Below, piece after piece: positions 17,574 through 42,437 of a DNA stretch of 43,802 bases. The position numbers and the translations under genes are program-made. How positions within the stretch are numbered: the stretch's first letter is position 1; each line of letters begins with the position of its first letter. Source of the stretch: Alphaproteobacteria bacterium (GTDB lineage: Bacteria > Pseudomonadota > Alphaproteobacteria > Bin95); NCBI GenBank assembly GCA_022821735.1, contig JAJECZ010000212.1, forward strand, positions 1-43,802. Direction: 5' to 3'. Below the pieces are notes generated by a model. That model had not been told where the DNA came from. It searched no databases and saw only the letters and a program-made list of their open reading frames with translations.

Positions 17574-17732
17574 TTCACGCGCGCGCCATCGATATCGTCG
17601 TCTTGATCCGCCCCCTCCGATTCTGCTCCAATGCTGACCTTGGCGCCTGTACGACACCACGGTGGCGGCGCCACCCGGTGCGGACAGGCAAGGTCCGTGG
17701 ACATGATTCGCGATCCAATGCCATCTGCGTTA

Positions 17733-17800
17733 TCCTCAATTGCGGTAAATCAGATGCGGGAAATGCATATGTCCCGCAATCCGCCAATTGGGGGAGACGG
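17733..17800. promoter_or_regulatory. Nested palindromes with two CAATTG cores upstream of the LuxR gene
   Basis: tcctcaattgcgg (17733-17745) ... gcggga-aatgcatatg-tcccgc ... cgccaattgggggagacgg (17782-17800). This lies 160-230 nt upstream of the LuxR start at 17573. Confidence 0.3.
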
Positions 17801-18446: not shown

Positions 18447-18472
18447 ATCTACATCAACTGGGGGACGCGCGG
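18447..18472 (-). repeat. IS-end-like repeat copy (degenerate)
   Basis: atctacatcaactgggggacgcgcgg. Compare atctaccccaactggggggcggca at 31692. It lies about 350 nt upstream of the Cys-rich gene at 18824. Confidence 0.5.
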
Positions 18473-18823
18473 ACTCGCCCGACTCGCCTAGCCTCCCCGC
18501 GAAGAGGAGGAAACGCGGGCGGTGAGGAACGTGTCGTGCATCGTTACAACGGCCGCGAGCCTGTTCCCGTCATTTCTTTCGGCGCGGGCAAGGGCGACGC
18601 GGACTTGTCCGGGGAGCGGAGTCCTTCGCGCGCGGCGGTCCGCCGGGGCTTCCGCGCCGCCGCCAGAATTCCGCCGGCCTTCGCCGCATTCTGCGCGGCT
18701 GTCCTTCGGGCGCAACCCGACAGCCGGGTCGGCAACGGACGATACGGCCTGATGGGGCCGCTTCCTGGAACACCGCCTCGGCACCTTCCGATACCGACAC
18801 CGAAAAGGTGAGGAGATCCGACG

Positions 18824-19741
18824 ATGATGGACCGGATAACGGGAAAGCTCCGCAACCTTGGGGTTGTGGGCGTGACGGCAATGGCATTCCTCGCAGCGTT
18901 GATGCCGACGGAAGCTTTCGCGGCATGCACCGGCCAGTCCTATAGCCAAAGCTATTGTCTCGAGGGCCGGCGCAGCAATCCCAGCATCTTCCAGGATGCC
19001 TACTGGCGCGCGAAGAACATCTGCCGGGGCAACATGAAGGTCGAGATCAGCTTCTACGACAGAAGTTCCGGCGGCAGCCAGGGTTCCAAGGAATTCACCC
19101 TCGCCTACAACGAACAGAGGAGCGACCACACCGAGTCCGGCGTGGCCCATGTCCGATGCTGCGACAGCGGCACCGCCTCGCTGAGCATCGACGGCCGGAG
19201 CGTCAAGCTGTGCGACGTGACCGGGGACGAGTACTCAGACTGGCAGCAGGCAAACCCGGTCATCACCACCGAGGAATGCGCGGCAGAATGGGCGCTCAGC
19301 GACGCCTCGGAGCATTGCGGAGACCCGGATATCGAGGTCGTCGTCGAGAGCGGCGGCAGCAACCGTTGCCAAATCTCAGCGACCTGTACGCCGAACGGCC
19401 TCAGCTACAGCTTCACCAAAGGCGTCAGGTCGGCTCTGGACAATGTCTCGGACCTTTATATCTGCAAGGAAGGGTTCAGCCATTCCGAGTGCGATTACAC
19501 CTGCGACGACCACTATTGCAGCAACGCCGACTGCATCGCGGAGTTCAACGAGAGCCCGGCTGCCGACAGCTGCCATAACCTGAGCACCTCGTTCACCGGG
19601 CCGGACAAATGCGACCTCACGGCGGACTGTCCGACACCGAACAACTGGTTCTACCACCTCACCCTCGACGATATCGATGTGGAGAACGTGGACAGGGTCT
19701 GCAATTACTACGGCACGCGCCTGAAGGTCGGAGGGTGCTGA
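18824..19741 (+). CDS. Cysteine-rich secreted or lipo-protein, long paralog (305 aa, 20 Cys)
   Basis: RBS aggtgaggag; signal peptide ending AFAAC; ends in ...LKVGGC. It shares the N-terminal pattern AAC-x10-12-CLE...NIC...(V/I)R.CC and a duplicated C-terminal C-x5-C-x22-25-C module with the 194-aa paralogs. GC content is lower than in its neighbours. Confidence 0.75.
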   Translation: MMDRITGKLRNLGVVGVTAMAFLAALMPTEAFAACTGQSYSQSYCLEGRRSNPSIFQDAYWRAKNICRGNMKVEISFYDRSSGGSQGSKEFTLAYNEQRSDHTESGVAHVRCCDSGTASLSIDGRSVKLCDVTGDEYSDWQQANPVITTEECAAEWALSDASEHCGDPDIEVVVESGGSNRCQISATCTPNGLSYSFTKGVRSALDNVSDLYICKEGFSHSECDYTCDDHYCSNADCIAEFNESPAADSCHNLSTSFTGPDKCDLTADCPTPNNWFYHLTLDDIDVENVDRVCNYYGTRLKVGGC

Positions 19742-19753
19742 CGGCAAGGAGAC

Positions 19754-21157
19754 ATGGTGCGAACCGCCTGTCTTTGCCTGATCCCGTTCCTATGCGCCGT
19801 CTGGTCGATATCGTACGCGCGTGCAGAGGAACCCGACAGGCCGGAGCGCCGTCCGGTCCCTCTCAGGCTTGAAGACGCAGTCGGGCTGGCACTCGCTGAC
19901 AGTCGCGCCGCCATCGCCGCCCGACTGGGGCGACAGGAGCAAAAGCTCTCGCTGGAGAGGGCCGAGGAACGCTACGACCCCTCGGCCAGCCTGCGCCTGG
20001 GCACGACCGCGCAGAGCCGTGGGGACGAGACAGCATATGTCGCCCTCGGACCGAGCCTGCGGATCCGGACCGGCGGCACTTTCGCACTCGCCTTGCGCAA
20101 GCCGCTGGCCGGAGAGCGCGACCGGGAGACGAGCACGACACTCACCTTTCAACAGCCGTTATTGAAGGGGTTTGGGGCCGATCTGGACACCGGGCCGCTG
20201 CGCCGCGCGCGTCTCGATGAACGCATCGCCGCACGCGCCTTCCGGGATGCGGCATCCGCCATCGTCGACTCGGTGGTCTCTGCCTACCGCGGAGTGCTGA
20301 GGGCGGAACGGAGACTCGTCATCGCGCGCGAGGCGCTGGAACGCGCACAGCGGCAGCTCGGGATCAACCGGACGCTGGTGGAAGGGGGCCGGATGGCGCC
20401 GCAGGACCTGGTGCAGACCGAGGCCGACATCGCCAACAAGGAATATGCCCTGATCGATGCGAAGAACCGTCTGGAAACCGCCACGTCCACCCTTGTCGAC
20501 ACGCTCGATCTCGAAGAGGGCGTGCGCATTGAGGTGCAGGACGAACCGCCTGTCGAGCCGGAGCGGCCGGACCTGGAGGAAAGCCTTGAGACGGCGTTTG
20601 CACGCCGGACGGACTGGCTCAGTGCCGAGATCGGCATGGAACTGGCGCGCATGGGGCTCAGGACAGCGGAGAACAACATGCTGCCGGACCTCACACTGAG
20701 CGCGGAGGCAGCCCATGGCAGCGGGCAAGACCGCACGGACTGGAGCGGCGGGCTGAACCTGACCGTGCCGCTCCAGAACGACGAACCGAGGCGGACGCTG
20801 ACGCGCGCGCGCAACAGCCTCCGACGGGCGGAGATGGCGATGGCCGAGACGCGGCAATCGATCCGCATCGAGGTGCTCGGGACGGTGCATGATGTGGCGG
20901 TGGCGCTGCGCCAGATCGACCTCTCCCGCCAGGCACAGGTGCTCGCAGCGCGCAAGCTCGATATCGAGCGCCGCAAATTGCAGCAGGGCCTTTCCACCGC
21001 CTTCCAGATATCCCGCTTTGAAGATGACCTTGTAGCCACGCAGAACCGAGAACTCGAAGCGGTGGCGCGTTACCGGGACTCACTGTCCAGGCTCGATCGA
21101 ACGCTTGGCACCACGCTCGACCGATGGGGTGTATCGGTAGAACAGGTGGGTCGGTGA
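19754..21157 (+). CDS. TolC-family outer-membrane efflux protein (exporter 1)
   Basis: 467 aa with a signal peptide and two OEP repeats (..LEDAVGLALADSR...; ..LQQGLSTAFQISRFEDDLVATQNRE..). It starts 12 nt after the Cys-rich gene. Confidence 0.9.
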   Translation: MVRTACLCLIPFLCAVWSISYARAEEPDRPERRPVPLRLEDAVGLALADSRAAIAARLGRQEQKLSLERAEERYDPSASLRLGTTAQSRGDETAYVALGPSLRIRTGGTFALALRKPLAGERDRETSTTLTFQQPLLKGFGADLDTGPLRRARLDERIAARAFRDAASAIVDSVVSAYRGVLRAERRLVIAREALERAQRQLGINRTLVEGGRMAPQDLVQTEADIANKEYALIDAKNRLETATSTLVDTLDLEEGVRIEVQDEPPVEPERPDLEESLETAFARRTDWLSAEIGMELARMGLRTAENNMLPDLTLSAEAAHGSGQDRTDWSGGLNLTVPLQNDEPRRTLTRARNSLRRAEMAMAETRQSIRIEVLGTVHDVAVALRQIDLSRQAQVLAARKLDIERRKLQQGLSTAFQISRFEDDLVATQNRELEAVARYRDSLSRLDRTLGTTLDRWGVSVEQVGR

Positions 21158-22899
21158 CCGACCCCGATATCCACCGGGAAGTGCTCGACAATCTCGAGGA
21201 CGGTGTACTTGTCGTCGGCATGGGCGGGAAGGTCCGGACGCTGAACCCGGCCGCCGAGCGCATACTGGGCCTGAATGCCGACGAGGTCGCGGGGAAGGGT
21301 TTCGCCGAACTCTTCGTCACGCGGGAAGGCTTCGACGATTTCACGCAGATGGTGATCGACGCCACGGCAGAGCAGTCGATCGGCCGGCGCCGCGTGATTC
21401 AGGTGGACGGGGGCAACGAAACCCGGGCGCTCTCCATCGTCACCTCGTACCTCCGGCGCAAGAGGGCTTCGGAACCGATGGCGGTGATCGCGGTATTCAG
21501 CGATATCACCGAACTTCGCGATTTGCGGGAAACGGAGCTCAGGCTGGCCCGCGAAGCGGAGACCCAGCATCGCAGCCTTCAGGATGCATACCTTGAGATC
21601 GAGGACCGCAATGCCGCTCTGGCGCAGGCGCTGCGCAAGGTACGTCTGGTGCAGGGTCTGGGCGCGGTGCTCGCCGTTGCCCTGTTTCTCGGAGCCGGTT
21701 TCTGGACTTCGCGTTCGCTGGACCTTTTCGAGGGAGAGGGGATCGAGGCGTCCGCGGCCTCCGACGGCGCTGAACGCCGACTGACCGTGAAGCCGCGTCC
21801 CGTCTCCGACAGCATCACATTGAGAGGAACGCTGAAGCCGTGGCGGATCATACCGGTGCGCAGTCCCGTCGATGGCACCGTCGAGTCCGCCTACTACCGG
21901 ATCGGACAGAAGGTTGTGGAAGGCGAAACACTGCTGAAACTGGATATCAGCCGCGCCAGGCTCGACCATAGCTCGGCCAGCCGCCGCCATGCCGAGGCGC
22001 TCAAGAGGCTGAGGGACCTGGAGGACTGGGAGAACAGTCCGACGATGACCAAGGCCCGGCGGAACTTCATCAGGGCGCGGCTCGACCTGGAAAGCCTGCG
22101 CACGAAGATCAACAGGAGCCGGTTCCTGTTCGAAGAAGGGCTGATTCCGGTATCCGAGCACGAGGATGCGGAGCGGGAGTTCAAGGGACAGGAACTGGAT
22201 TTCGCAGCTGCCGAGGAAGAACTGGAAGCCACGCGTTTGGAAGGCAACGAGGAACGGTTGAATGACGCGCGGCTTGGCCTTGAAGCAGCGCGTATGGAGT
22301 TGCGGGCTACCGAAGCGGCACTCAAGTACGACGAGGTGCACGCCCCGGTATCGGGTGTCGTGCTGGCGCCGCAGCGCGCGGGCCAGGAGATGGTTCCCGG
22401 CAGATCGCTGAAGGCCGGAGGGCAAGTCCTGGAAATCGGCGACTTCTCGCGCATGGCCGTCACGACACAGGTGGACGAGGCGGATGTCGCCAAGCTCCGG
22501 GTGGGCCAGAAAGTCACCGTCAGGGGCAACGCCTTTCATGGGCTCGCGCTCAAGGGAAAGGTCACGCATGTCTCCTCGCAAGCGGACCCCAAGTCGCGCA
22601 GCATCCCGAAGTTCGACGCAAGGGTCACGCTCGATGCGGTGGATCCGGACGAGGCGGCGCAACTCCGCACCGGCATGTCGGCCCGGCTTACGATCGTCAC
22701 CTATGAGAACCCGACGGCCATGCTGGTGCCGATCGACGCGGTGCGCAGCCGGGGCGGCGAGCACCGTCTGCTGGTCATCGATCCCGAGACCGGCGAGGCT
22801 GAGGTCCGCGAGGTCGAGATCGGCCCGACGACACGGACCTCCGTCGAGATCCGGGCCGGCCTCAGGGCGGGCGAAACCATCCTGCTGCCGGGACGATGA
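21154..22899 (+). CDS. Membrane-fusion (HlyD/MacA-type periplasmic adaptor) protein with an N-terminal cytoplasmic PAS domain (exporter 1)
   Basis: The GTG at 21154 overlaps the OMF stop (GTGA). The PAS-like region is LDNLEDGVLVVGMGGKVRTLNPAAERILGL...IAVFSDITELRDLRETELRL. It is followed by a coiled coil, a TM segment (GLGAVLAVALFLGAGFW), then lipoyl/coiled-coil/beta-barrel adaptor motifs (..VRSPVDGTV..; ..VHAPVSGVV..; ..MLVPIDAV..). Confidence 0.85.
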   Translation: MTDPDIHREVLDNLEDGVLVVGMGGKVRTLNPAAERILGLNADEVAGKGFAELFVTREGFDDFTQMVIDATAEQSIGRRRVIQVDGGNETRALSIVTSYLRRKRASEPMAVIAVFSDITELRDLRETELRLAREAETQHRSLQDAYLEIEDRNAALAQALRKVRLVQGLGAVLAVALFLGAGFWTSRSLDLFEGEGIEASAASDGAERRLTVKPRPVSDSITLRGTLKPWRIIPVRSPVDGTVESAYYRIGQKVVEGETLLKLDISRARLDHSSASRRHAEALKRLRDLEDWENSPTMTKARRNFIRARLDLESLRTKINRSRFLFEEGLIPVSEHEDAEREFKGQELDFAAAEEELEATRLEGNEERLNDARLGLEAARMELRATEAALKYDEVHAPVSGVVLAPQRAGQEMVPGRSLKAGGQVLEIGDFSRMAVTTQVDEADVAKLRVGQKVTVRGNAFHGLALKGKVTHVSSQADPKSRSIPKFDARVTLDAVDPDEAAQLRTGMSARLTIVTYENPTAMLVPIDAVRSRGGEHRLLVIDPETGEAEVREVEIGPTTRTSVEIRAGLRAGETILLPGR

Positions 22900-22912
22900 G
22901 TGGAGGGCCGCC

Positions 22913-23272
22913 ATGGGAAAACTCAATTTCGCCAACCAGCCCGTCTGGACCGGCGACAATCTCGCCATCATGCCGGGCATTCATTCGGATTTGGGCGATC
23001 TCAGCTACCTCGACGCTCCGCTCAACTCAAAAACTGACCATGCCGCGCCGATCGGCAGCAAGGCGGCCGGGGCCGCGAGCAGGGACACATGGTCGCCGGG
23101 CACCCTCGATGCCCTTCAGCGCCTGGAGGCCGATCATATCATCGCACGGGCGAAGGGCGGGACCGACCATGTCGGCAACCTCCAGCTCCTCGGCGGACAC
23201 CGCAACCGCGTGAAGGGAGACCGGGGCATGGTAGAGCTGCGCCCGAAACTCCGACTGCCAAGAGCGTCCTGA
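22913..23272 (+). pseudogene. Collapsed DNA-methyltransferase/HNH remnant inserted inside the exporter-1 operon
   Basis: The N-terminus resembles N6/N4 methylases (..VWTGDNLAIMPGI.SDLGDLSYLDAPLNS), but DPPF/Y has degraded to DAPL. The C-terminus resembles an HNH module (EADHIIARAKGGTDHVGNLQLLGGHRNRVKGDRG), but the CxxC cysteines are lost. Only 119 aa remain. Confidence 0.6.
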
Positions 23273-23286
23273 GCGCCAGGAAAGAG

Positions 23287-23967
23287 ATGCTGGAGCTTTC
23301 CGATGTCCGCAAGACGTTCCGGCGGGGGCCGGTCGAGGTAAAGGTCCTGAGGGGAGTCGACCTCCGCGTGGAGGCGGGCGACCTCATCTCGATCATGGGG
23401 CCGTCCGGCAGCGGCAAGTCCACGCTCATGAACATACTGGGCCTGCTGGGGCGCCAGACAAGCGGCATCTACCGGTTGAACGGCCGCGACGTCTCGACCA
23501 TGGACGACCGCGAACTCTCGGCGTTCCGCAACCGGCATATCGGTTTCGTGTTCCAGTCGTTCAATTTGCTGGGGCATCTGACGGCGCTGGAGAACGCGGC
23601 CCTGCCGCTTGTCTATCGCGGCCTCGGACGGCGGGACGTGCGCCGGCGCGCGCAAGGCATCCTGGAGAAGGTCGGCATGGGCGACCGGCTGGATCACAGG
23701 CCTGACCAGCTGTCGGGCGGCCAGAAGCAGCGGGTGGCGATTGCACGGGCGCTCGTGGGCGAGCCGGGAGTGGTACTGGCCGACGAACCGACCGGAGCGC
23801 TCGACTCCGACACGGCCGACGAGGTGATGCGGCTCCTGGTCCGGCTCAACCGGGATGAGGGTGTCGCGGTGGTCATCATCACGCACGCTCCTTCGGTATC
23901 CCGGCAATGCTGCCGGCAGACCCTGATCCGGGACGGCGCATTGCTGGAAGACGGCGACACGGCATGA
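23287..23967 (+). CDS. ABC transporter ATP-binding protein, MacB/LolD type (exporter 1)
   Basis: Walker A (GPSGSGKST), Q-loop, signature (LSGGQKQRVAIARAL) and Walker B (VLADEPTGALD). Confidence 0.95.
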   Translation: MLELSDVRKTFRRGPVEVKVLRGVDLRVEAGDLISIMGPSGSGKSTLMNILGLLGRQTSGIYRLNGRDVSTMDDRELSAFRNRHIGFVFQSFNLLGHLTALENAALPLVYRGLGRRDVRRRAQGILEKVGMGDRLDHRPDQLSGGQKQRVAIARALVGEPGVVLADEPTGALDSDTADEVMRLLVRLNRDEGVAVVIITHAPSVSRQCCRQTLIRDGALLEDGDTA

Positions 23968-25163
23968 GACACACCAGTCCCGCACTCATGGACAGCCTGC
24001 GCGAGGCCTTGCGGAGCCTCTTGCGGGCCCGGCTGCGCACCGTGCTCGGCCTCATCGGCATCGCCATCGGCATCGCTTCGGTGATCGCCATGGTCTCGAT
24101 AGGCGAGGTCGCCACCGCCGAGGCCCGCAAACAATTCGAGGCCCTCGGCACCGATATCGTCACAGTCAAGACGGCGAAGGACTACAGGGGCCCCGGGATT
24201 GCCTTGGAGGCCGCGCTGTCGCTGACGGACTCGCTGTCCGCCATCTCCGCGGCATCGCCGACCATTCTTGGCGGAACCAACTTCGTTCATGCCGGCCGGC
24301 GCGTGGGCACCGGCTCCGTCAAGGGGGTCAGAGCGTCCTATGCGGACCTCGTGAAGCTCGAAATCGCGGAGGGGCGGTTCGTGTCGGACCTCGACGCCGG
24401 AAGCCTGTGGTGCGTGGTCGGCGCGAACGTTGCCGCAGCCATTCGCCGGGCCGGAACGCTCGACCCACTAAGCGCCGAGCTTGAGGTTGACGGACGCTTC
24501 TACCGGGTCGCCGGCGTGCTGCGAAACCGTGAGGAAACCCATGGCCTTCCCTTCGAAGTGGACGCAGACAAATCCGTGTTCGTCCCGGCTGTCACGGCCT
24601 GGCGCGCCACGCCGAATCCGGAGGTCGGAACGATCATCGCCCGCGCCGCGCCCGGCATCCACCATGAAGATGCGGTGCGCGCGATCAAGACCTGGTTCAA
24701 TGAGCGGCAGCCGGAACTCAAGCTGGAGGTAAGAAGCGCCAAGCAGCTGATCGCACAGATGGAAAACCAGCTGGGCCTGATGGCCATGCTGTTGGGTGCG
24801 GTCGGCAGCATCAGCCTCGTCGTCGGCGGTATCGGTGTCATGAACATCATGCTGATTTCGGTCGCGGAACGTCGGCGCGAAATCGGTGTCCGCCGGGCGC
24901 TCGGCGCCAGCCGGATCGACATAAGGCGTCAATTCCTGGTCGAGTCGGTCATTCTGACGCTCGTCGGCGGCAGTTTCGGCTTTGTCATCGGCAGCGTCGC
25001 CACCTGGGGCATCTGCGAGTTCACAGACTGGGACTTCTTCGTTTCACCGCTCTCGGTGGTCGTCGGGCTCGTCATCTCGTCGGCCGTGGGTATCTTCTTC
25101 GGCATCCAGCCCGCCTACCAGGCCTCCCGTCTCGATCCCATCGTGGCATTGCAGGGAGAATGA
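23964..25163 (+). CDS. ABC transporter permease, MacB/FtsX type with a large periplasmic domain (exporter 1)
   Basis: The ATG at 23964 overlaps the ATPase stop (ATGA). It has TM1, a ~220-aa periplasmic domain, then an FtsX 3-TM bundle (..GGIGVMNIMLISVAERRREIGVRRALGA..; C-terminal ..PAYQASRLDPIVALQGE). Confidence 0.9.
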   Translation: MRHTSPALMDSLREALRSLLRARLRTVLGLIGIAIGIASVIAMVSIGEVATAEARKQFEALGTDIVTVKTAKDYRGPGIALEAALSLTDSLSAISAASPTILGGTNFVHAGRRVGTGSVKGVRASYADLVKLEIAEGRFVSDLDAGSLWCVVGANVAAAIRRAGTLDPLSAELEVDGRFYRVAGVLRNREETHGLPFEVDADKSVFVPAVTAWRATPNPEVGTIIARAAPGIHHEDAVRAIKTWFNERQPELKLEVRSAKQLIAQMENQLGLMAMLLGAVGSISLVVGGIGVMNIMLISVAERRREIGVRRALGASRIDIRRQFLVESVILTLVGGSFGFVIGSVATWGICEFTDWDFFVSPLSVVVGLVISSAVGIFFGIQPAYQASRLDPIVALQGE

Positions 25164-25826: not shown

Positions 25827-25854
25827 TTGCGCCCCCCAATTGGGGTAGGCGGGG
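25827..25854 (+). repeat. IS-end-like repeat copy
   Basis: ttgcgccccccaattggggtaggcgggg. It starts with TG, and the transposase fragment lies on its inner (right) side. Confidence 0.55.
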
Positions 25855-25886: not shown

Positions 25887-26028
25887 GTCCGGGATGTCGA
25901 AACGCCAGCCCCCTTCCGGCAGCGCGGCCGTCATGGGTGTGGCGATGCACAAGGTCACGGGACCAGACATGGTCCGCCCGCTCGGCGCGCCGCGCAATGC
26001 GGGAGCCGTCGTTCAGCTTCAGGCGGTC
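25887..26028 (-). pseudogene. IS3-family transposase fragment (start of the integrase core)
   Basis: The reverse translation DRLKLNDGSRIARRAERADHVWSRDLVHRHTHDGRAAG resembles the ..LNDGSCIRLRPE.PNHVWSYDFV.DRT.DGR.. segment of IS3-family OrfB proteins. It has no start or stop context. Confidence 0.45.
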
Positions 26029-29770: not shown

Positions 29771-29835
29771 GGATGCGTTCCGTGCGCGTCCAGCATCGAT
29801 CCCCTCACGGAATGGGCTCCTGGCGTCGGACAGTT

Positions 29836-30069
29836 TCAGGCGGCCGATTTGACCGGCTCGCGGAACTGTTCCTCCTCGAAGCCTCTGGGGCTCGCATAGC
29901 CAAGAGCCGAGTGCAGGCGCCTCTTGCCATGGCTGTCGATGAAGCGCGGCAGGTGTTCCGGGACGTCTTTGGAGCCGTTACCGGTCTTGGGGACAGACCC
30001 CTCGATCTTCAGCGTCTTCATGAAGCTCTCCATCAGAGCGTTGTCGTTGAGCTGGCTGCGTCGTCCCAT
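29836..30069 (-). pseudogene. IS3-family transposase C-terminal fragment
   Basis: ..NDNALMESFMKTLKIE....LPRFIDSHGKRRLHSALGYASPRGFEEE matches the conserved IS3 OrfB C-terminus (YDNA..ESF.KTLK.E...LP.FIE..YN.KRLHSALGY.SP..FE). The upstream part is frame-broken. Confidence 0.75.
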
Positions 30070-30305
30070 CGAGCCGGTCGGTCTCTGGGAGTCCGGTTAG
30101 GGATGGATCGCGCGCCCTTCGGTCGGCGTTCTTCGGCTATGGAGCGGTCTTGGGCCCGGTGATGACGGGCATGGGCCCGCTTCTCGGCTACCGTCCTTGC
30201 GGCCGAGCTCCCCTGAGAACTCGAGTTCCGGGACCTGCTCGCCGACCAGGCCTTCGAAGGCCGCGATCCAGGAGACCGCTCCAGCGCCAAACTAATATTC
30301 ACAAA

Positions 30306-30329
30306 ATCTCCCTCAATTGGGGGGCGGCA
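30306..30329 (-). repeat. IS-end-like repeat copy
   Basis: atctccctcaattggggggcggca. It lies about 260 nt upstream of Cys-rich gene A and marks the left edge of tandem-duplication unit A. Confidence 0.6.
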
Positions 30330-30588
30330 GTACTCACCTGAACTCATACACTTTTAATGAAAATTCAGGTTCCGTGCGAGGCTCTTGCAGACCCATGCCG
30401 CATTCTCCCGCCGAAGGAATGCCGAGCCGGCATCCCGCGCTACTGTCCGGGCTGCGGCCGACATGTTTGTTCGACATACAGCATGCGCCGCCGTTGTTGT
30501 TGCGTGGGCATGCTAGTCCGCTTCTTCGCCGTGCAGTTCACCGATCCAACGAGGTCTCCGGACAGGAAGAGGGAAAGGGTATTGGACG

Positions 30589-31173
30589 ATGAAGACACCC
30601 ATCGCATTTCGAACGGTAATCGCCGCTTTGTCGGTCATGTTTTTCACGGCTGCTGCATCGGAGGCCTTGGCAGCATGCGGATCGAGCCAGCGGATGAGCC
30701 ACCGAGATTCCCGCTGCCTCGAGGCGTCGTGGGACAACAATTACTGGCCGCACACGACCACGTATGAGGTAAGAAGCGTTTGTGACCGTTGGGGCAAGGT
30801 TGTCGCGAAAATAGACCTCAAGAGCGCAGCAGACCACACTCTGCATCTGAACAACAGTGATTGGCGACGTGCCGAAGGGTCGTTTCGGGTAAGATGGATT
30901 TACTGCTGCAAGGACATAAGCGACCTCTGCAACACATCGGAAATGAAGACAAATGAGAGTTGTCGCGACGGCTTCGAAGACCGCGATGAAGTCGACGACT
31001 GTACTCTTGACGACGGGACTTCCGGAGCGCGGATCAGGGGCGACCATTGCGTATATAACGCAAGTTGCCTTGACGATGCGTCGCAACCGAACCAGACGTC
31101 GCTCTCCATCCACCGAGCGGACCTGGAGTTCCTGAAAAACTGCAACGGCGTCCTGAAAAGGGATTCCTGCTGA
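30589..31173 (+). CDS. Cysteine-rich secreted or lipo-protein, paralog A (194 aa, 12 Cys)
   Basis: Signal peptide MKTPIAFRTVIAALSVMFFTAAASEALAAC; ends ...NCNGVLKRDSC. GC content is visibly lower than in its surroundings. No family recognised. Confidence 0.8.
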   Translation: MKTPIAFRTVIAALSVMFFTAAASEALAACGSSQRMSHRDSRCLEASWDNNYWPHTTTYEVRSVCDRWGKVVAKIDLKSAADHTLHLNNSDWRRAEGSFRVRWIYCCKDISDLCNTSEMKTNESCRDGFEDRDEVDDCTLDDGTSGARIRGDHCVYNASCLDDASQPNQTSLSIHRADLEFLKNCNGVLKRDSC

Positions 31174-31691
31174 TCCTGCCGGCCGAAGGAGGGGGCCTCG
31201 CTGAGCCGTGATGGAATGTTCGCCGATCTGGCGGCCCCGTTTCTCGCGGGCGCGGCGTCCGGCGCCGCCGGGTGCCGCCCCAGGGTACAGTATGCGGTCG
31301 AGATGCTCTCGTGCATGGCGCGGTGATGATCTGACATGTGCTCCGTGCGGATGCCGTAACGGTTGGACCCGGTCAGGCGGCTATGGACAGCGGTCCGTTC
31401 GCCATTGCGGGACAATGGGAGTTCGATCCCCCGTTCGCCGCGCCCGGAGCGTAGCGCCAACGTCTTGCCGGAGAAGTCCCACATGCCGCAGAGCGCCGGG
31501 GCATAGTCGAATCGGATCTGCAAAGCCCCGCGCCGGTCCCCGAGACGAGCCTTGAGGCAGGCGCAGAAACTGGATCTCTAGCCGTAAGCTCTTCTGCCCT
31601 GCGCGAGAACCCGGTCGCGATATACCACCCGGAGTTGGCGGGGCGTCGGCCGGGCGCGGCGCCGCTTCCGAACCCGAATGAACGAGAAAGA

Positions 31692-31715
31692 ATCTACCCC
31701 AACTGGGGGGCGGCA
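31692..31715 (-). repeat. IS-end-like repeat copy
   Basis: atctaccccaactggggggcggca. It lies about 260 nt upstream of Cys-rich gene B. Confidence 0.6.
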
Positions 31716-31972
31716 GTAATCGCCCGAACTCGTAGACTTTCGACGAAAACCAGGTTCCGTGCGAGGTTCATACAGGCCATGCCGCATTGCCACGCCGAAG
31801 GAATGCCGAGCCGGCATCCCGCGATATTGTCCGGGCCGCGGCCGTCAGGCCAGTCCGACATGCAAAATGCGCCGCCTTCGTTGTTGCCCTGGCACGCCAG
31901 GGCGCTCCCTCGCCGTGCAGTTCACCCATCCAACAAGGTCTCCGGACAGCAAGAAGGAAAGGGTATCGGACG

Positions 31973-32557
31973 ATGAACACGCGCATCGCATTTCGAACGG
32001 TAATCGCCGTTCTGTCGGTCATGTTCCTCACGGCTGCGGCATCGGACGCCTGGGCGGCGTGCGGATCGAGCCAGCGGATGAGCCACCGCGATTCCTTCTG
32101 TCTCCAGGCGTCGTGGGACAACAACAGCTGGCCGCACACGACGTCGTATGAGATGAGAAACATCTGCTCTTCCTGGGGCAAGGTCGTCGCGAAAGTCGAC
32201 AGAAAAGACGATTCGGACCTCACATTGCACCTGGTCAACGACTCCACGAGAACCGGCAGCGGGTGGTACAGGATCAGGTGGATTTACTGTTGCAAGGACA
32301 TAAGCGATCTCTGCAACAGGTCGGACATGCAGACAAACGCGAGCTGTCGCGAAGGCTTCGAGGACAACAACGAACTCGACGACTGCACGCTCGACGCGGG
32401 GTCCGAAGGAGCGAGGATTCAGGGCGAGCAGTGCGTATACAGCGCAAGCTGCCTCGACAATGCGTCGCAACCGAACGAGACGACGTTCATCGTCTTCCGA
32501 CCGGACGTGGACGATTTGAAGAATTGCAACGGCGTCTTGAAACAGGATTCCTGCTGA
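31973..32557 (+). CDS. Cysteine-rich secreted or lipo-protein, paralog B (194 aa, 12 Cys)
   Basis: MNTRIAFRTVIAVLSVMFLTAAASDAWAAC...NCNGVLKQDSC. It is colinear with paralog A and all 12 Cys positions are conserved. Confidence 0.8.
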   Translation: MNTRIAFRTVIAVLSVMFLTAAASDAWAACGSSQRMSHRDSFCLQASWDNNSWPHTTSYEMRNICSSWGKVVAKVDRKDDSDLTLHLVNDSTRTGSGWYRIRWIYCCKDISDLCNRSDMQTNASCREGFEDNNELDDCTLDAGSEGARIQGEQCVYSASCLDNASQPNETTFIVFRPDVDDLKNCNGVLKQDSC

Positions 32558-33121
32558 TCCTGCCGGCAGAAAGAGGGTGCCTTGCTCTTCCGCGATTGAA
32601 TGATCGCCGAACTCGCGGGCGTGGCGTCCGGCACTGCCGAGCAGCACATGCGCTTGGGCGAAGCCCGACCGGGCCGGACGGAGGTGCTGCAACATACGGT
32701 CGAGAGGCTGGCCGGCAGCTGTCAAGGCGACGACATGAGCGCGAGGTCCGACAGGCCCTTCCCGCCCGTCTCGTGGTCTAGGCGGAAGATCGCCTCCTGT
32801 TCCGGCCCCTGCCCGGGGGCGCCAGACGGCAATCCCGCGTTCCGGCGTGCTCCGCACGCCGGGGGCCAGATCCGGATGACCGCGAATCGGCTCCCGGAAC
32901 ACGCCGGTCGGACGGATGCCGGGACCGGCCCCCGGGGACAGGCGCATTCGGCCTCGACGGTATCGGCCGGCGGGTTCCAGTGCCCCGACCGCGCGGTGCG
33001 CTCTTCCCTTTGCAAAGAAACGGGCCCGGGCAGACCGGCAGACCTGGGTGAGCCGCCGTTACACATCGACATGTTTCAGGCGGCGCGCCGATCTTCGTCC
33101 GCGGAGTGCCAAATCCACGCT

Positions 33122-35216: not shown

Positions 35217-36782
35217 TCATTCCCGATCCTCGCAGGCGACGCCGCTCCGGGAGCCGCCCGAAACAGCCTCGAACCCGGGCGACCGTTCCCGTTTTCCAAA
35301 TGCGTCCAGCATGGCGCCGAAGCAGGCGGACGTCATCGGCGGATACCAGGTAGGGACCAGCCCTTGCGCCGCCTGTACCCGCTCGGGACGGAGCAGCCAG
35401 GGCTCCTCGCCGAACCAGTTCATGCCGTCGATCGCGGCGAGGTCGAAGGTCGGATCCACCAGGCGCTGAAACGGCTTGCCGTTCACGCTCTTCGAGATGT
35501 CGGCGTAAATGCGCACATCATCGATGCCCTGCCGGGCGAAATCCGCCTTCAGCCAATGCACATAGTGCATCAGCACCTCGGGCTTGGTGAACACCATGAA
35601 CTCCTGAAGCGGATCGAGATGGGATCGCGGTTCGACGATCCATGCCTCGCCGTTCGGTGCGGCCACCAGGAAGCTCCCGCCGCCGTCGTTGATGTAGAGC
35701 ATCATGCGCCAGGAGAATTTCTGGCCCTCTTCGGTCCACCCGACATAGCCTTCGAACAGGCTGTCCCGGAAGGGCAGCCAGATTTGGACTAGGGCGTAGA
35801 GGACGAGGGCAGCCAACGCAGCCGGATGCAACGGACGGAAGGCGGCCCGATCGTCTGCGCTTCCCGCCGGCGCGCCGCCGATGAACGCGACCGCGCGGCC
35901 GATCCGGTCCGGCATTCGTGGTCGCACCACCCGCAGCCTCTTCAGCACGAGGCCGGTCCTGCGCGCCAGCGCCCCGGGCCAGTCGGGGGAGAACAGGATC
36001 GTCGTGGCGGCGATCGTCATCCACGGGAAGACGCCGATAGGGAACAGATGCGCGTTGGCGACGTGGAAGGCGCAGTAGACCAGGAATATCCAGAGCCTCG
36101 TCTTCGACCACAGCAGCAACGGCGCCCCCACCACGTGGAGCAGGATGACCAGCACGGGCGCCGCGAGCGTCACCCAGTGCAGCTCGAACAGGACGGAGAA
36201 GGGCGACCAGGTCCGCTCCAGCATCCAGGTCCTGAGCGGCTCGCCCCGCAGCCAGTCGATCTCGAATTTCGCCAGTCCCGCGAAAATCAGCACAACCTCG
36301 ACCTGGAACTGCAGGATGAGGAGGTTCCAGCGCGGTACCTCTCGCGTGCCCCCGATGCGGCCGAGCCTGCGGTCCACCGACCAGCAGCGGTGCGCGTCGG
36401 TACAGCCGAGCAGCAGCCCGAACAGCGCGATCATGTAGAAATGGTTGAGATAGAGCAGCTGATCGAGAAGGAAGAAGTATATGAAAATCGCGTTGAAGCC
36501 CCAGATGGCGAGACGATAGAAGGCGCCGAAGGCGACGAGCACGCAGCACACCCCGCACAGCGCCCACAGCCAGTGCAGCCAGGGTGCCGGCAAAGGCGGC
36601 ACCTCCAGTCCGAAATAGGGAAACAGGATTTCGCGCTCGACATAGAACCGCGTCAGCCATCCGCCTCTCAGCAGATAGACAACGTCGTGCAGCATCACGA
36701 GGCCGAAGGCGATCCGGAAGACGGCAAGCGACTGTCCGGCCACGGGCCGGACGGCCAGCCTGCGAATGTCTGTCAGCATCAT
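35217..36782 (-). CDS. HTTM-domain membrane protein (vitamin-K-dependent gamma-glutamyl carboxylase-like)
   Basis: N-terminal HTTM signature (..GQSLAVFRIAFGLVMLHDVVYLLRGGWLTRFYVE..ILFPYFGLE...YRLAIWGFNAIFIYFFLLDQLLYLNHFYM..L..LL). It has multiple TM segments and a ~200-aa C-terminal domain. It starts 54 nt downstream of the exporter-2 permease on the same strand. Confidence 0.85.
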   Translation of the reverse strand: MMLTDIRRLAVRPVAGQSLAVFRIAFGLVMLHDVVYLLRGGWLTRFYVEREILFPYFGLEVPPLPAPWLHWLWALCGVCCVLVAFGAFYRLAIWGFNAIFIYFFLLDQLLYLNHFYMIALFGLLLGCTDAHRCWSVDRRLGRIGGTREVPRWNLLILQFQVEVVLIFAGLAKFEIDWLRGEPLRTWMLERTWSPFSVLFELHWVTLAAPVLVILLHVVGAPLLLWSKTRLWIFLVYCAFHVANAHLFPIGVFPWMTIAATTILFSPDWPGALARRTGLVLKRLRVVRPRMPDRIGRAVAFIGGAPAGSADDRAAFRPLHPAALAALVLYALVQIWLPFRDSLFEGYVGWTEEGQKFSWRMMLYINDGGGSFLVAAPNGEAWIVEPRSHLDPLQEFMVFTKPEVLMHYVHWLKADFARQGIDDVRIYADISKSVNGKPFQRLVDPTFDLAAIDGMNWFGEEPWLLRPERVQAAQGLVPTWYPPMTSACFGAMLDAFGKRERSPGFEAVSGGSRSGVACEDRE

Positions 36783-36836
36783 GTCTGCCGCTCCGACTTC
36801 GCCCTTGGCCCCGCGTCTCTCACCGGCCGCTCCACC

Positions 36837-38051
36837 CTATTCGCCCTGCAGCGCGATGATGGGATCCAGGCGCGAAGCCTGGTAGGCGGGCTGGAAGCCG
36901 AAGAAGAGGCCGATCGCGGACGAGACGCCGACGCCGGCAGCGATGGATGTCGGCGAGACGAAGAAATCCCACTCGAAGAAGAACCGGCACAGGCCGTAAG
37001 TCGCTCCTGTTCCGATGAGAATGCCGACCACCCCGCCGCCCATGGTGAGGATCAGGGCCTCGACCAGGAACTGGCTCTGGATGTCGCCGGGGCTCGCGCC
37101 GAGGGCCAGCCGAACGCCGATCTCGCGGCGCCGCTCGGCCACCGAAATCAGCATGACGTTCATCACGCCGAGCCCGCCCACGATCAGGCTGATGCTGCCG
37201 ACCGCGCCGAGCAGCAGGGTCATCACGCCCAGCTGTGCCTCCATGCGCTCGATCAGCTGCTCGGCGCTGGTGACCTGGACGGCGAGGCCCCGGGACCGTT
37301 CGGCGAAGAAGGTCTGGATGTCCGCGGCGGCGTCCGCGTAGTGAACGCCGGGCGCAACCCGGGCGACGATCAGTTCGATCTGCGCGTCCGGACTGAGGCG
37401 CCGGACCGTGGTAACGGGAACGAATACGGATTTGTTCGCGTCCACGGAAAACGGCAGCGCATAGCTCTCGGGCGTGTCGGCCAGTACGCCGATCACGGTG
37501 TAGAGCCAGTCTCCGGCCCCCACGATCTCGCCCACGACCTCGCTTGCGCCGAGCCGGCGCATTTTCTGCGCCACCTCGGCGCCCACCACCGCGAAATAGC
37601 GCCCCCTGTCCAGGTCCGAGACGAAGCGCCCCTCGGCGACCTGCAGCCGGTTTACGCGCGCAAACGACTCCGAAACGCCCTGTACGGAGCCGGAACCGGC
37701 GTCCTTGCCGGCATACAGGAAGGAACCGCTTGACCGTATCCTGGGCGCCGCCTCGGCAATGGTCGAAAGCCTGTCGGCAACGTCGAGCGCATCCTCCAGA
37801 CCGATGGCCGCGTCTTGCGCGGCGGCCGGCTGGTCCTCCGACTTGAGGACCGAAAGTATATCGGTCCCGACAGCCTCGAACTTCTTGCGCGCCTCGGCGG
37901 TGGCGATTTCCCCGGTCGAGATCATCGCGATCACCGACGCGATGCCCATCGCGATGCCGACCAGCCCCAGGATCGTGCGGAGCCTTGCACGCAGGAGGCT
38001 GCGCGCGGCCTCGCGCAGGCTGTCGGTCAATGCGGCTCCCCCGCGCGCCAT
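36837..38051 (-). CDS. ABC transporter permease, MacB/FtsX type (exporter 2)
   Basis: Colinear with the 23964 permease (MARGGAALTDSLREAARSLLRARLRTILG...PAYQASRLDPIIALQGE). The ATG at 38051 is preferred over the longer ORF. Confidence 0.9.
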   Translation of the reverse strand: MARGGAALTDSLREAARSLLRARLRTILGLVGIAMGIASVIAMISTGEIATAEARKKFEAVGTDILSVLKSEDQPAAAQDAAIGLEDALDVADRLSTIAEAAPRIRSSGSFLYAGKDAGSGSVQGVSESFARVNRLQVAEGRFVSDLDRGRYFAVVGAEVAQKMRRLGASEVVGEIVGAGDWLYTVIGVLADTPESYALPFSVDANKSVFVPVTTVRRLSPDAQIELIVARVAPGVHYADAAADIQTFFAERSRGLAVQVTSAEQLIERMEAQLGVMTLLLGAVGSISLIVGGLGVMNVMLISVAERRREIGVRLALGASPGDIQSQFLVEALILTMGGGVVGILIGTGATYGLCRFFFEWDFFVSPTSIAAGVGVSSAIGLFFGFQPAYQASRLDPIIALQGE

Positions 38052-38062
38052 AACGCCGCCGT

Positions 38063-38743
<681 letters not shown>

Positions 38744-38758
38744 TGCGGGCGCCAGCGC

Positions 38759-40531
38759 TCAGTATTCCGGCACCGCGATTTCGTCGCCGGCCTCCAGGCC
38801 TGCAACGATCTCGACGGAACTCATCGTGGTCAGACCGATTTCGACTTCGCGCTCGACCGTTTCGCCGGTGCCCGGATCGACAATCTGCACCCAGTGCGAC
38901 CGCCCGCGACGGTCCACCGCCGCCAGCGGCACCGTGAGCGCCTCCTCGTTGCGGTAGACGACGATCTCCAGCCTGCTGGACATCCCGGCGCGCAGCCGCC
39001 GCTGTTGTGCGTCGTCGAGCGGATCGAGCGTCACCCTGACGGCGAAACGGGACGCTCTCCCCGTCTGTTGCACCGGCTGCGACGAGACCTGGGTCACGGT
39101 CCCCTTCAGCATCAGGTCGCGAAAGGCGTTCCCGGTTACCGATACGGCCTGCCCGACGGCGATCCGGACCACGTCGACTTCGTCCACCTTCGCGGTTGCC
39201 GCCATCCGGGTGAAGTCTCCGATGGTGAGCAGATGGTCGCCCTTACGTACGGCCCGGCCTGCCGCCAGGGCCGGGCCGCGCGACGAGGACGCCATGACCA
39301 CCCCCGACAGCGGTGCATGGATACGCCCCTTGTCGAGGTCTTCCGCCAGCTCCCGCAATGTTTCCTCGGCAGTGCTGAGTTCCAGCGCCGCCTTGTCCTG
39401 CGCCTCCTTGCCGCCCCTGGCCCGGGCCGCCTCGAAGTCTTCGCGGGCTGCCTCGAAATCCAGAAGCTGGCTCTGGTACCGCCGTTCCGCATCCTCGCGC
39501 TCGGAGGTGGCGACCAGGCCCTGTTCCAGCAGGAACGCGGTCCGCTTCAGCTGCCTCTCCTGATCCTCCAGTTCCATGCGCGCACGCGCGAACGACCGCC
39601 TGGCAGCCGCCATCTCGGAGCCGGTCTCCCAGTTTGTGACGGTTTCGAACGCATCCGCCTTTTCGATGTGGGCCACTTGCGCCTCGCGGTGCTTTTGCAC
39701 CGCTTCGGAGGTATCCAGTTCCATCAGGAGACCGCCCTCCTGCACCGCCTGGCCGTGCTCGAAATGCACGGCTTCGATGCGGCTCTCGATCGGACTCGTC
39801 ACCGCAACCGTCCGCCATGGCGCCAGCTTGCCCGACAGCGTGATCGTCTCGCTTACCGGCTGCGGCCCCACGGTCACCGTGTAATGGCCTTCTTCGAGCC
39901 CGGCCCTGGCAGGGGAGACAACGGACTGATCGAGCGAGCCCTCAAAGAGATCGAGCGGCTGCCACACATAGGCGCCGGCGCCCAGGAACGTCCCGATCAC
40001 AACCACCGTCGCGACGATCCGCGCCACCTGGACCTGTCTCAGGGTCGCCGCCAGGGTCCGGTTGCGGTCCTCGATCTGCCGGTACGCCGACTGAAGCTCG
40101 GCGTGCTGCGCCTCCACTGCCTTCGCCATCCGCAGTTCGGTCTCGCGCAGCTCCTTGAGCTCGGTGATGTCGCTGAAGACGGCGATCAGCGCCATCGGCG
40201 CCGACTCGCCGTCCGCGCCCGACCGAAGATAGGATGTCGCTACCGAGAGCGACCGGGCTTCCCCGCCTCTCTCCAGCGCCACCACCCGCCGGCCGCCGTC
40301 GCTCTCCCCGGTCACGGCGTCGAGGATCAGCCCGCTCAGCTCTTCGAAGCCGTCGCGGTCGATGAAGAGTTGGGCGAAGGACCCGCCCACGGCCTCGTCC
40401 GGCGCGAGCCCGAGGATGCGTCCCGCCGCCTCGTTGAACACCGAAACGGTGCCGCCGCGCTCGACCACGATCACGCCGTCGGACAGGTTCTCCAGAACGC
40501 TCCCGCGTATATCGGCGAACCCGCCCGTCAT
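38759..40531 (-). CDS. Membrane-fusion protein with an N-terminal cytoplasmic PAS domain (exporter 2)
   Basis: The ATG at 40531 overlaps the OMF stop (ATGA). MTGGFADIRGSVLENLSDGVIVVERGGTVSVFNEAAGRILGL...IAVFSDITELKELRETELRM, then a TM segment (IVATVVVIGTFLGAGAYVW) and the adaptor domains. The 945-aa ORF extension overlaps the OMF gene and is rejected. Confidence 0.85.
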   Translation of the reverse strand: MTGGFADIRGSVLENLSDGVIVVERGGTVSVFNEAAGRILGLAPDEAVGGSFAQLFIDRDGFEELSGLILDAVTGESDGGRRVVALERGGEARSLSVATSYLRSGADGESAPMALIAVFSDITELKELRETELRMAKAVEAQHAELQSAYRQIEDRNRTLAATLRQVQVARIVATVVVIGTFLGAGAYVWQPLDLFEGSLDQSVVSPARAGLEEGHYTVTVGPQPVSETITLSGKLAPWRTVAVTSPIESRIEAVHFEHGQAVQEGGLLMELDTSEAVQKHREAQVAHIEKADAFETVTNWETGSEMAAARRSFARARMELEDQERQLKRTAFLLEQGLVATSEREDAERRYQSQLLDFEAAREDFEAARARGGKEAQDKAALELSTAEETLRELAEDLDKGRIHAPLSGVVMASSSRGPALAAGRAVRKGDHLLTIGDFTRMAATAKVDEVDVVRIAVGQAVSVTGNAFRDLMLKGTVTQVSSQPVQQTGRASRFAVRVTLDPLDDAQQRRLRAGMSSRLEIVVYRNEEALTVPLAAVDRRGRSHWVQIVDPGTGETVEREVEIGLTTMSSVEIVAGLEAGDEIAVPEY

Positions 40532-41943
40532 TGCCCGACCTGCTCGACCGTTATGCCCCAGGTCTCCAGGGTCGTGCCAAGGGTCCGATCCAGCGCCAGG
40601 AGCGCGTTGTCGTAGCCGGCGAGAGCGTCGACCTCGGCGTTCTGCGCACCGACAAGGTCCTCCTCGAACCGGCTTAGCTGGAAGGTGGACGAGAGACCCT
40701 GCTGCAGCTTGCTCCGCTCGATCGCGAGCTTCTCCTCGGTAAGTTCGCGCGCCCTGCGGGCCAGCTCGATCTGCCGCTGCCCCACCTCTACGTCGTACAC
40801 GGCCTGGCGCACGGCGATGCCCATCGCCTGTCGCAGTTCCTTCAGGCCCCGCTCCGCGCGCCGAACGTCCGCCCGGGCGCTCCTGAGCCCGAGTTCGGGC
40901 GAGCGGTCCCACAGCGGAACGGTCAGCCGCAGGCCGGCGGAATAGTCGATCCCCACATCGCCGCCGGTGCCCCGCGACATGTCCGCATCCAGGGACAGGT
41001 CCCAGAGCTTGCTGTTCTCGGCAACCGTCAGCCCGATCCCGGCGATCTCCCTGACCAGAAGCGCCTGCGCATAGCCGGGCGAGTGCCTGAGCGCCGTCTC
41101 GATGGCCTGCTCGACCGAAAGCGGCCGGCGCGGAACGGACGGCGCCTCGACCGGACGGATCACCGTTGAACTGTCGATGTCGAGAATGTCGATCAGGGAG
41201 AAATTGGCCGAGGTCACGCCGTTCCGGGTCTGCACCAGGCCGAGTTCCCTTCCGGCCACATCCGCCTCGCTCTGGAGCAGTTCGCGGGCCGCCATCTGGC
41301 CCGCCTCGACGAGCTTGCGGTTGATGTCCAGCTGCTCCCGCGCGCGGGCCAGAGAGGCCTCGCCGATCTCGAGCTGGCGCCGCGACTGCACCAGGCCACG
41401 CCAGGCCTGGATCGTGGAAATCACGACGCCCGCGACCGCCTGGCGGAAGGCCAGCACACCGATTCGTTCGCCGATCCGCGCCACCCGCAGCGGCGCCGTA
41501 TCGATGTCCGTCCCGAAGCCGCGCAGCAACGGCTGCGAGAAACCCAGCGAGACCGTGCCCGAAGTGTCCTCCCCGCCGGCAAGCGGCTTCGACCACCGCA
41601 AACTGATCTGCCCCCCGGTGGGAATCCGCAGACCGGTCCCGATGGAAGCATCTGCCGTCATCTGCCCGTCCCTTTGGGCACGCACCGTCGGCGCGATGCT
41701 CCCAATGGGGCTGTAGCGGTCCTCGGCCACCTCGAGCGAGAATTTCTGGATGGCGCGGGAGAGACGGGCGTCGAGCAGGCCCCGGTTGTTCTCCAGCGCC
41801 AGCGCGATCGCGTCATCCAGCGTCAGCGCGAGGCGGCCGGCAGGTACCCCCACCTGGCCCAGTCCCGGCGAAGGCCGCAACACCGTCATCGCCGCTGCCG
41901 GAAGCAGCAGAGCGACTATGGCAACTATGGAAATCCGGGTCAT
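40528..41943 (-). CDS. TolC-family outer-membrane efflux protein (exporter 2)
   Basis: 471 aa with a signal peptide (MTRISIVAIVALLLPAAAMT). It is colinear with the 19754 OMF, at roughly half identity by eye. Confidence 0.9.
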   Translation of the reverse strand: MTRISIVAIVALLLPAAAMTVLRPSPGLGQVGVPAGRLALTLDDAIALALENNRGLLDARLSRAIQKFSLEVAEDRYSPIGSIAPTVRAQRDGQMTADASIGTGLRIPTGGQISLRWSKPLAGGEDTSGTVSLGFSQPLLRGFGTDIDTAPLRVARIGERIGVLAFRQAVAGVVISTIQAWRGLVQSRRQLEIGEASLARAREQLDINRKLVEAGQMAARELLQSEADVAGRELGLVQTRNGVTSANFSLIDILDIDSSTVIRPVEAPSVPRRPLSVEQAIETALRHSPGYAQALLVREIAGIGLTVAENSKLWDLSLDADMSRGTGGDVGIDYSAGLRLTVPLWDRSPELGLRSARADVRRAERGLKELRQAMGIAVRQAVYDVEVGQRQIELARRARELTEEKLAIERSKLQQGLSSTFQLSRFEEDLVGAQNAEVDALAGYDNALLALDRTLGTTLETWGITVEQVGQ

Positions 41944-42413
41944 TCTGGATCGCCGCCGGCGGACCTGGCATCCGCGCCCGCCTCACCCGGCCGACGCTGC
42001 CGCCCAGCTCGGGGGCCGGAGCGCGGATACCGCCGCCCTCGCTGGCGTCAGGCGCCCCTGCAATGCCCCAGCCTCTTTCTCAAGGGCACGCCGTGCGCCG
42101 GTTCGAAAATCGCGGCCTTCCGCTCTACCAACACGCCGGTGTGGTCCTGAGTTCGCCGTCGCAGCTGCGCGCACCGCTCCTGCCCGCCACGCCGGCTCCC
42201 AATGAGGAACCGTACCAAACGGCTGTCCTTGCGACGACATCTCCTGCAACCCCGTCACTCATGTCGCGTCTCCCGTGTCGGGCGTCCCCTCGGTTCCGGC
42301 TGTCGCTGCCAGTGGTGCAAGCTGCCGCAGAAATGCAGCCGGAAGCCGCCCCGCCGTTCAAAAGGCACGCGTGGCCAATTCGTTCAGTTAAAGTGTTGGG
42401 GAACGGACGGCCT

Positions 42414-42437
42414 TGTCGCCCCCCAATTGAGGGAGAT
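42414..42437 (+). repeat. IS-end-like repeat copy
   Basis: tgtcgccccccaattgagggagat. It shares about 70 nt including flanks (..gttcag..aaagt..ccttgtc.cccccaattgagggagattcccaag.aatg) with the copy at 43637. Confidence 0.6.

Follow-up and report, generated by a model that had tools for sequence, protein, structure and literature searches.

In the promoters controlled by LuxR, the lux box forms a 20-bp dyad whose centre lies at -42.5, and a dyad at this position, lying over a missing -35 box, is the layout of lux-box-type activator-dependent promoters. A second group of regulators combines a PAS domain with a LuxR-type helix-turn-helix (HTH); one of its members, PimM, is about 190 amino acids long. 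In Streptomyces, the target promoters of these PAS-LuxR regulators carry in their -35 region a 16-bp palindrome to which the regulators bind, and the operator of PimM, PteF and AmphRIV, CTVGGGAWWTCCCBAG, is found in several promoters of one gene cluster (PMC9774167). We analysed a repeated palindrome in a stretch of 43,802 nucleotides (the window), which is the whole of contig C433 in an alphaproteobacterial assembly of 554 contigs, 4.0 Mb and 68% G+C. The original prediction had offered two readings of this repeat, namely the inverted repeat of an insertion sequence (IS) or a palindrome co-opted as the binding site by which a regulon is defined. With a probability of roughly 0.7, we read it not as an IS end but as the operator of a PAS-LuxR-type regulator encoded at 16410-17660 in the same window, placed at promoters that would depend on an activator; the assignment comes from sequence comparison.

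The regulator gene (16410-17660, minus strand) encodes 416 amino acids, and its product is the putative binder of the motif. Pfam places a GerE-type HTH of the LuxR/NarL class at residues 347-393 and gives a weak, sub-threshold PAS match (18.6 bits against a cut-off of 22.6), while sequence searches against NCBIfam and the PDB recognise only the HTH. The N-terminal half of about 200 residues belongs to no recognised family. The site in the window resembles the lux box, and also the TraR and LasR boxes, in that it is a dyad of about 20 bp, that its proposed binder has a LuxR/NarL-type HTH, that its centre would lie near -42.5 where a -35 box is missing (a position deduced from the distance to a -10-like hexamer), and that the regulator gene adjoins its presumed targets. 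The two differ in sequence, which is ATCCyCCAATTGGrGGAT in the family studied here, and in the regulator, which is without the autoinducer-binding domain of LuxR and has the PAS-like region and the unrecognised N-terminal half instead. The likeness to the PimM type consists of the combination of PAS and LuxR HTH, as far as a PAS match below threshold allows, and of a palindrome in which runs of G/C enclose an A/T centre. However, the arms are reversed (CCCC..GGGG here and GGGA..TCCC in Streptomyces), and the dyad-symmetric window core CCCyCAATTGrGGG does not fit the Streptomyces consensus. The regulator is also about twice as long as PimM with no detectable similarity to it outside the HTH, and hosts of the window type are Gram-negative, sponge-associated bacteria in which the targets would be secreted protein and pump genes and not polyketide genes.

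Pfam analysis showed that the window encodes two MacAB-TolC-like pumps, both with PAS-fused adaptors, together with an HTTM protein, a DsbA/ScsC-like protein, a STAS protein and a large FG-GAP/ASPIC protein. Four Cys-rich proteins with signal peptides are also encoded, and the gene set was found again in other metagenome-assembled genomes (MAGs). The Cys-rich genes lie at 18824-19741 (plus strand, 20 Cys, the first gene of an operon with pump 1 at 19754-25163), 30589-31173 (plus strand, lipoprotein-like, 12 Cys), 31973-32557 (plus strand, 70% identical to the gene at 30589) and 42798-43367 (minus strand, 46-51% identical to the genes at 30589 and 31973). The second pump operon (35217-41943, minus strand) comprises by Pfam an outer-membrane factor, a PAS-fused adaptor, an ABC ATPase, a MacB-type permease and an HTTM protein.

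Every copy of the motif listed in the original prediction was found where it had been placed. On the plus strand, copies C (30307-30326, TCTCCCTCAATTGGGGGGCG) and D (31693-31712, TCTACCCCAACTGGGGGGCG) are located 5' of the Cys-rich genes at 30589 and 31973, and the degenerate copy F (18448-18467, TCTACATCAACTGGGGGACG) precedes the operon of the first pump with its leading Cys-rich gene at 18824. On the minus strand, copy A (42417-42436), with the same 20-mer as C, TCTCCCTCAATTGGGGGGCG, lies 5' of the second pump operon, whose outer-membrane gene starts at 41943, and copy B (43638-43657, TCTCCCTCAATTGGGGGTGA) lies 5' of the Cys-rich gene starting at 43367. Two further copies on this strand are the orphan E (25830-25849, CCTACCCCAATTGGGGGGCG), which has a perfect core, CCCCAATTGGGG, and a partial copy upstream of the regulator gene itself (17778-17797, TCTCCCCCAATTGGCGGATT). 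The distances from copy to gene start, which had been estimated correctly, are 352, 260, 258 and 270 nt for the Cys-rich genes and 471 nt for the outer-membrane gene of the second pump. Five of the six good copies are thus oriented toward a start codon 258-471 nt off. For these five the supposition that a copy always faces a Cys-rich gene or a pump gene holds; it fails for copy E, which has no gene downstream and where a decayed Cys-rich gene was looked for without one being found.

The 20-mers of A and C are identical, while B departs from them only in the G run, where one G is missing, so that a single position differs and the register is off by one base from there on, and the three agree at 19-20 of 20 positions including the asymmetric flanks (TCT... 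and ...GGCG). A and B share 80% identity across 77 nt; beyond this pair, only a core of 20-25 nt is common to the promoter classes. Copies C and D belong to a duplication (30305-31234 against 31691-32618, 79% identity) which does start at the motif, as had been noticed, but which is not strictly tandem, with 457 unrelated nt between its two halves.

The 12-nt core CCCCAATTGGGG was found eight times in the 43.8-kb window when up to two mismatches were allowed, against 2.06 +/- 1.43 occurrences in dinucleotide-preserving shuffles, none of which reached eight in 100 trials. The clustering of CAATTG is unlikely to be a chance effect, as the original prediction had it. Across the 4.0-Mb genome, 14 cores with at most one mismatch were found, six of them in this contig, which forms 1.1% of the assembly, and a reversed control pattern occurred once in the same scan. 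An 18-nt extended motif, scanned with up to three mismatches, gave eight hits in the genome (the six window copies and two unrelated-looking ones on C541 and C513) and is essentially limited to this contig. Since six of the 14 cores and six of the eight extended motifs fall in one contig, the motif is clustered here and is not a repeat of the REP type scattered over the genome. A REP/BIME-type repeat was rejected on the same count, as tens to hundreds of copies would be expected of it and only 14 cores occur in 4.0 Mb. Two G020 matches (L002 and L004) come from a REP-like repeat of another kind (CCCTCTCCCC...GGGGAGAGGG and CCCTCACCCT..CCCTCTCCCCCCAnTGGGGGGAGAGGG) and not from the motif.

The link between the palindrome and the regulator was observed in 80 loci from other genomes, collected with the regulator alignment alone as the query and blind to the motif; common descent or transfer connects these loci, which do not count as independent samples. 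The palindrome scan (at most two mismatches, 1.47 Mb, 500-nt bins) gave 58 matches, of which 23, from 17 loci, occupy the single bin directly upstream of the regulator match, whereas the other 41 bins together hold 35 (about 0.85 per 500-nt bin). A palindrome was present in 7 of 12 loci where the regulator is at least 60% identical, in 5 of 16 at 50-59% and in 5 of 52 below 50%, and 63 of the 80 loci had no match at this threshold. The orthologous sites share the consensus cATCCyCCAATTGGrGGATg, which is kept despite unrelated flanks, and their hosts include Alpha- and Gammaproteobacteria, Vicinamibacterales, Rhodospirillales and Palauibacter. In locus L118 the site is a perfect 20-bp palindrome, CATCCTCCAATTGGAGGATG. 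The partial copy upstream of the window regulator is homologous to cATCCCCCAATTGGAGGATtg sites found 5' of 80%-identical regulators in L060 and L071, and in L021 and L023 the regulator orthologues adjoin Cys-rich genes. The suggestion that the palindrome defines a regulon is thus supported by comparative evidence which was gathered with the regulator alone; its other half, that the site is a co-opted IS end, is not, and a native operator is favoured in its place.

When the window copies are placed in gene orientation, a second conserved box appears about 30 nt downstream of the dyad. It has the form of a -10-like hexamer, TAnnnT, in C (TACACT, 30347-30352) and D (TAGACT, 31733-31738), in both cases 30 nt from the dyad centre, and in F (TAGCCT, 18489-18494) at 31 nt. 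Partial matches were seen 29 nt from the centre in A (AACACT, 42392-42397) and in B (AACTTT, 43613-43618), the latter being a weak assignment. No clean TAnnnT was found at 30 nt in A, B or the regulator's own copy, which has a poor -10 (GCATCT), and none lies at the right distance from E. Around the 58 sites from other genomes, searched in both orientations (116 site-orientations), the hexamer starts at an offset of 30 nt from the dyad centre 16 times and at 29 nt three times, while each of the other 33 offsets has at most one. Their hexamers are TAGGCT, TACAGT, TAGTAT, TATGCT and similar, and the sites that have one are located in several cases before regulator genes and in others before genes for signal-peptide proteins. 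If the hexamer is the -10 box and occupies -12 to -7, the dyad would be centred at -42.5 with its proximal half-site over the -35 position, and transcription starts can be predicted on the same footing. No TTGACA-like hexamer was found at the -35 position. A sigma-70 consensus scan of 30200-32100 returned no promoter either, a result that fits activator dependence and is uninformative alone. Sigma-54 (GG-N10-GC) and ECF (GAAC-N16-CGT) patterns downstream of the motif were compared by eye and are not conserved among the copies.

We propose that the operator is a dyad of about 20 bp, with the half-site (A/T)C(C/T)CCCyCAA, at the upstream edge of each promoter. A dimer of the regulator would bind this dyad near -42.5, over the place of the missing -35 box, and RNA polymerase would be recruited to the TAnnnT hexamer 30 nt from the dyad centre. 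We infer that the regulator acts in this way as an activator and not as a repressor, with the PAS region setting the signal. Five transcription units would be headed by such sites, namely three single Cys-rich lipoprotein genes (B, C and D), the operon of a Cys-rich gene with pump 1 (F) and the pump 2 operon (A), and their transcription would be coordinated, probably together with that of the regulator itself. Autoregulation is suggested by the copy upstream of the regulator gene. A second CAATTG box, TTACCGCAATTGAGG (17731-17745, minus strand), lies downstream of this copy. Other genomes have, as its counterpart, a conserved CTACYGCAAC box that follows the -10 of regulator promoters; the box in the window may be either an additional, weaker site for the regulator or an element of the leader.

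It was originally thought that the motif might be the terminal inverted repeat of an IS3-family element, and a MITE derived from one could be considered in the same way; such an element would have spread the cassettes and may provide an outward promoter. Read inward, the copies begin TG(n)2-4GCCCCCC, and this TG-proximal run of C is common in IS3-family ends, where the closest relatives have TGGAGTGCGCCCCTGAGGGTGGACAGAT. Genuine IS3 debris is also located within 20-40 nt of C and E. The ORF at 29836-30096 is the C-terminus of an IS3-family OrfB (rve_3), 59% identical to Aminobacter/Mesorhizobium IS3 transposases, and forms part of a relic (29808-30267, minus strand) which retains OrfB residues 202-282 and OrfA residues 68-115, the latter reaching 30267 by tblastn, with OrfB residues 44-201 deleted. 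In the closest intact IS3 elements the right inverted repeat (IRR) comes directly after the stop codon (TGGAGTGCGCCCCTGAGGGTGGACAGAT and TGGAGTGGGCCCCTCGGGCCGGACAG). Since the relic has homologous sequence in the homologous place, AACTGTCCGACGCCAGGAGCCCATTCCG at 29808-29835 directly after its transposase stop, it has an end of its own, and this end is unlike the CAATTG motif. Copy C occupies the place of OrfA codons, 240 nt off on the wrong side, and not that of a left end. A second IS3 scrap of 34 amino acids (25924-26025, minus strand; about 65% identity by tblastn to IS3 OrfB/transposases, E ~1e-4, no Pfam match) is likewise internally truncated beside E, and the motif is in coding position relative to both scraps. 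The IS3 fragments inward of two copies, which had been cited for an IS terminus, are therefore genuine, but the motif is not their end. No pair of copies flanks a transposase. An intact copy of the relic was sought in all 554 contigs without success, and no intact element with motif-like ends was found in these contigs or among single representative genomes of 185,579 species; absence from this genome alone is weak evidence because the assembly is fragmented. None of 60 relatives (16 of the same genus and 44 further) contains the exact 21-mer pattern, which has one unrelated match, in Acidimicrobiaceae, among the species representatives, and a 57-nt motif probe gave only two chance-level matches and no similar end in 72,556 plasmids. 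Similarity also passes the supposed TG terminus, with conserved boxes 40-130 nt on the "outer" side in the window copies and in L012, L020, L021 and L023. The subterminal repeats after the 43637 copy, which had been counted as IS evidence, belong to the end of a different multi-copy mobile element (43681-43802, plus strand) that begins TGCGGATTCC, has three ATTTGACSGC repeats and was inserted 22 nt beyond copy B. Contigs C91 and C54 contain the identical 122 nt, the preceding sequence is unrelated in all three, the contigs end inside the element, and it has no match in the plasmid collection. Together with the palindrome's retention, in several phyla, ahead of regulator orthologues and at a constant spacing to the -10 box, these observations make an IS terminus very improbable, and this part of the original prediction is best abandoned.

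An equally slender chance is left to the inverted repeat acting as a nucleic-acid hairpin, that is as a terminator or insulator, or as a stabilising stem-loop at the 5' end of the mRNA. Such a role would agree with relatives that keep the C-run and the G-run around a centre of variable length (4, 6 or 8 nt), and with a terminator-like call on the opposite strand at copy D. However, the six copies fold no better than shuffled sequences (z from -1.5 to +0.24), the stems are only 4-6 bp with no U-tract after them in the gene direction, Rfam at its gathering threshold found nothing in the whole window, and it is the sequence of the arms and the central AATT that are conserved, without co-variation. 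The site also lies upstream of the -10-like box and would thus be outside the transcript of that promoter. Two further explanations keep the motif as a protein-binding site, and both are unlikely, if less so than a hairpin. One is that an operator of this kind is bound by another factor, such as an unrelated regulator or the 48%-identical paralogue on C234, or that the neighbouring regulator represses. The link between regulator and site comes from sequence comparison, and the regulator's own promoter, with its poor -10 and the second CAATTG box downstream, would suit repression; against this, the site tracks this regulator family across the 80 loci, most strongly in the closest orthologues, and a missing -35 box with a -42.5 geometry is typical of activation. 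The other is that a promoter module of about 60 nt, made up of operator, spacer, -10 and start region, has been copied as a "mobile promoter" of which the motif is the edge while still being a regulator site. In its favour, the near-identical 20-mers of A, B and C stand before non-homologous genes (outer-membrane factor and Cys-rich), the A/B-type spacer (GGCGACAAG ... ACAACTTTT) turns up again in L060, ahead of a Rieske oxygenase gene that neighbours the 80%-identical regulator, and the C/D duplication has its boundary at the motif. No recombinase or target duplication accompanies the copies, though, the shared sequence outside the A/B pair shrinks to the core, and selection on the operator accounts for the boundary equally well. 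As an addition to the operator reading, a copied promoter module is possible; the identity of A, B and C is tighter than that of most regulon sites and could reflect recent copying.

If the motif is an operator, as we prefer, it would be the first functional element of each promoter, and the debris that abuts C, E and B as well as the edge of the C/D duplication would follow from this. Insertions and deletions were probably tolerated up to this element and not into it. In a Thalassobaculaceae MAG (L023, 8600-9730), an IS630-like transposase gene was observed between the regulator and the promoter of a Cys-rich gene; here too, mobile DNA has inserted immediately 5' of the operator. Mobile-element debris lying against a motif does not, as a caution, make that motif the end of a mobile element.

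Among loci with Cys-rich genes, L012 contains the orthologue of the gene behind copy D; its contig begins within the motif, and the distal half of this orthologous site has drifted. The close relative L009 has three CCCCAATTnTGG sites, two of which precede Cys-rich genes by 80-100 nt and have flanks that differ. A profile of the module (the dyad and about 125 nt) detected homologous modules before Cys-rich genes in L020, L021 and L023, and in L023 the palindrome, -10-like box and leader are also found before the pump operon. Only L021 and L023 among the Cys-rich loci encode an orthologue of the window regulator. No motif was found in 42 loci with more distant Cys-rich homologues, and so it is neither an ancient feature of the Cys-rich gene family nor tied to it. 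In more distant relatives the C-run and the G-run are 6-8 nt apart, compared with 4 nt in the window; this variable centre would require co-evolved regulators, or else it hints that the inverted repeat has a role in itself.

No paper with the core sequence CCCCAATTGGGG was found in the library searched, and both the site and the regulator family appear to be undescribed, although the kind of element is familiar. On the operator reading, a puzzling repeat becomes a testable regulon map of one regulator, seven sites and five transcription units, in which the predicted members are a new family of Cys-rich secreted proteins and two dedicated pumps. The pairing of regulator and operator recurs in uncultured sponge symbionts of several phyla. 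The 20-bp site and the predicted promoter geometry could help to find co-regulated genes in sponge-symbiont genomes, and the switch could be rebuilt in a laboratory host to seek its signal. More tentatively, and as a speculation that we would not yet favour, the regulator and the ATCCyCCAATTGGrGGAT operator might form a portable switch shared horizontally by sponge-associated bacteria of at least five phyla, which turns on genes for secreted proteins in response to a signal read by PAS and which, in this genome, has been connected through copied promoter modules with an entire export system that serves a disulfide-rich lipoprotein family not yet described.

Members of the regulator family (L060-L139) were found in MAGs of Alpha- and Gammaproteobacteria, Acidobacteria, Gemmatimonadota, Nitrospinota, Binatia and Spirochaetia. 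Many of these MAGs come from sponge studies and some genomes have several paralogues, as does the genome of the window, where the 48%-identical paralogue is encoded at 3180-4322 of C234. The distribution points to horizontal spread of the family within one habitat. In L060, where the regulator is 80% identical to that of the window, a perfect CCCCAATTGGGG site with the A/B-type spacer (9560-9650, minus strand) was observed before a divergent Rieske ring-hydroxylating oxygenase gene (8348-9589, minus strand). Because of this placement, the targets of the regulator are likely to vary from host to host.

The leaders between the predicted -10 and the start codon are long, at 230-440 nt (30353-30588, 31739-31972, 41944-42391 and 18495-18823). 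Those of C, D and L012 are 83-87% identical, and leader blocks common to the window and to L020, L021 and L023 were also observed. The length and conservation of these leaders suggest that an additional layer of regulation may act at the RNA level. In the pairs C-D and C-L012 the identity of the leader exceeds that of codon position 3 (67-71%), whereas in the pair D-L012 the coding sequence (95%, with 90% at position 3) is better kept than the leader.
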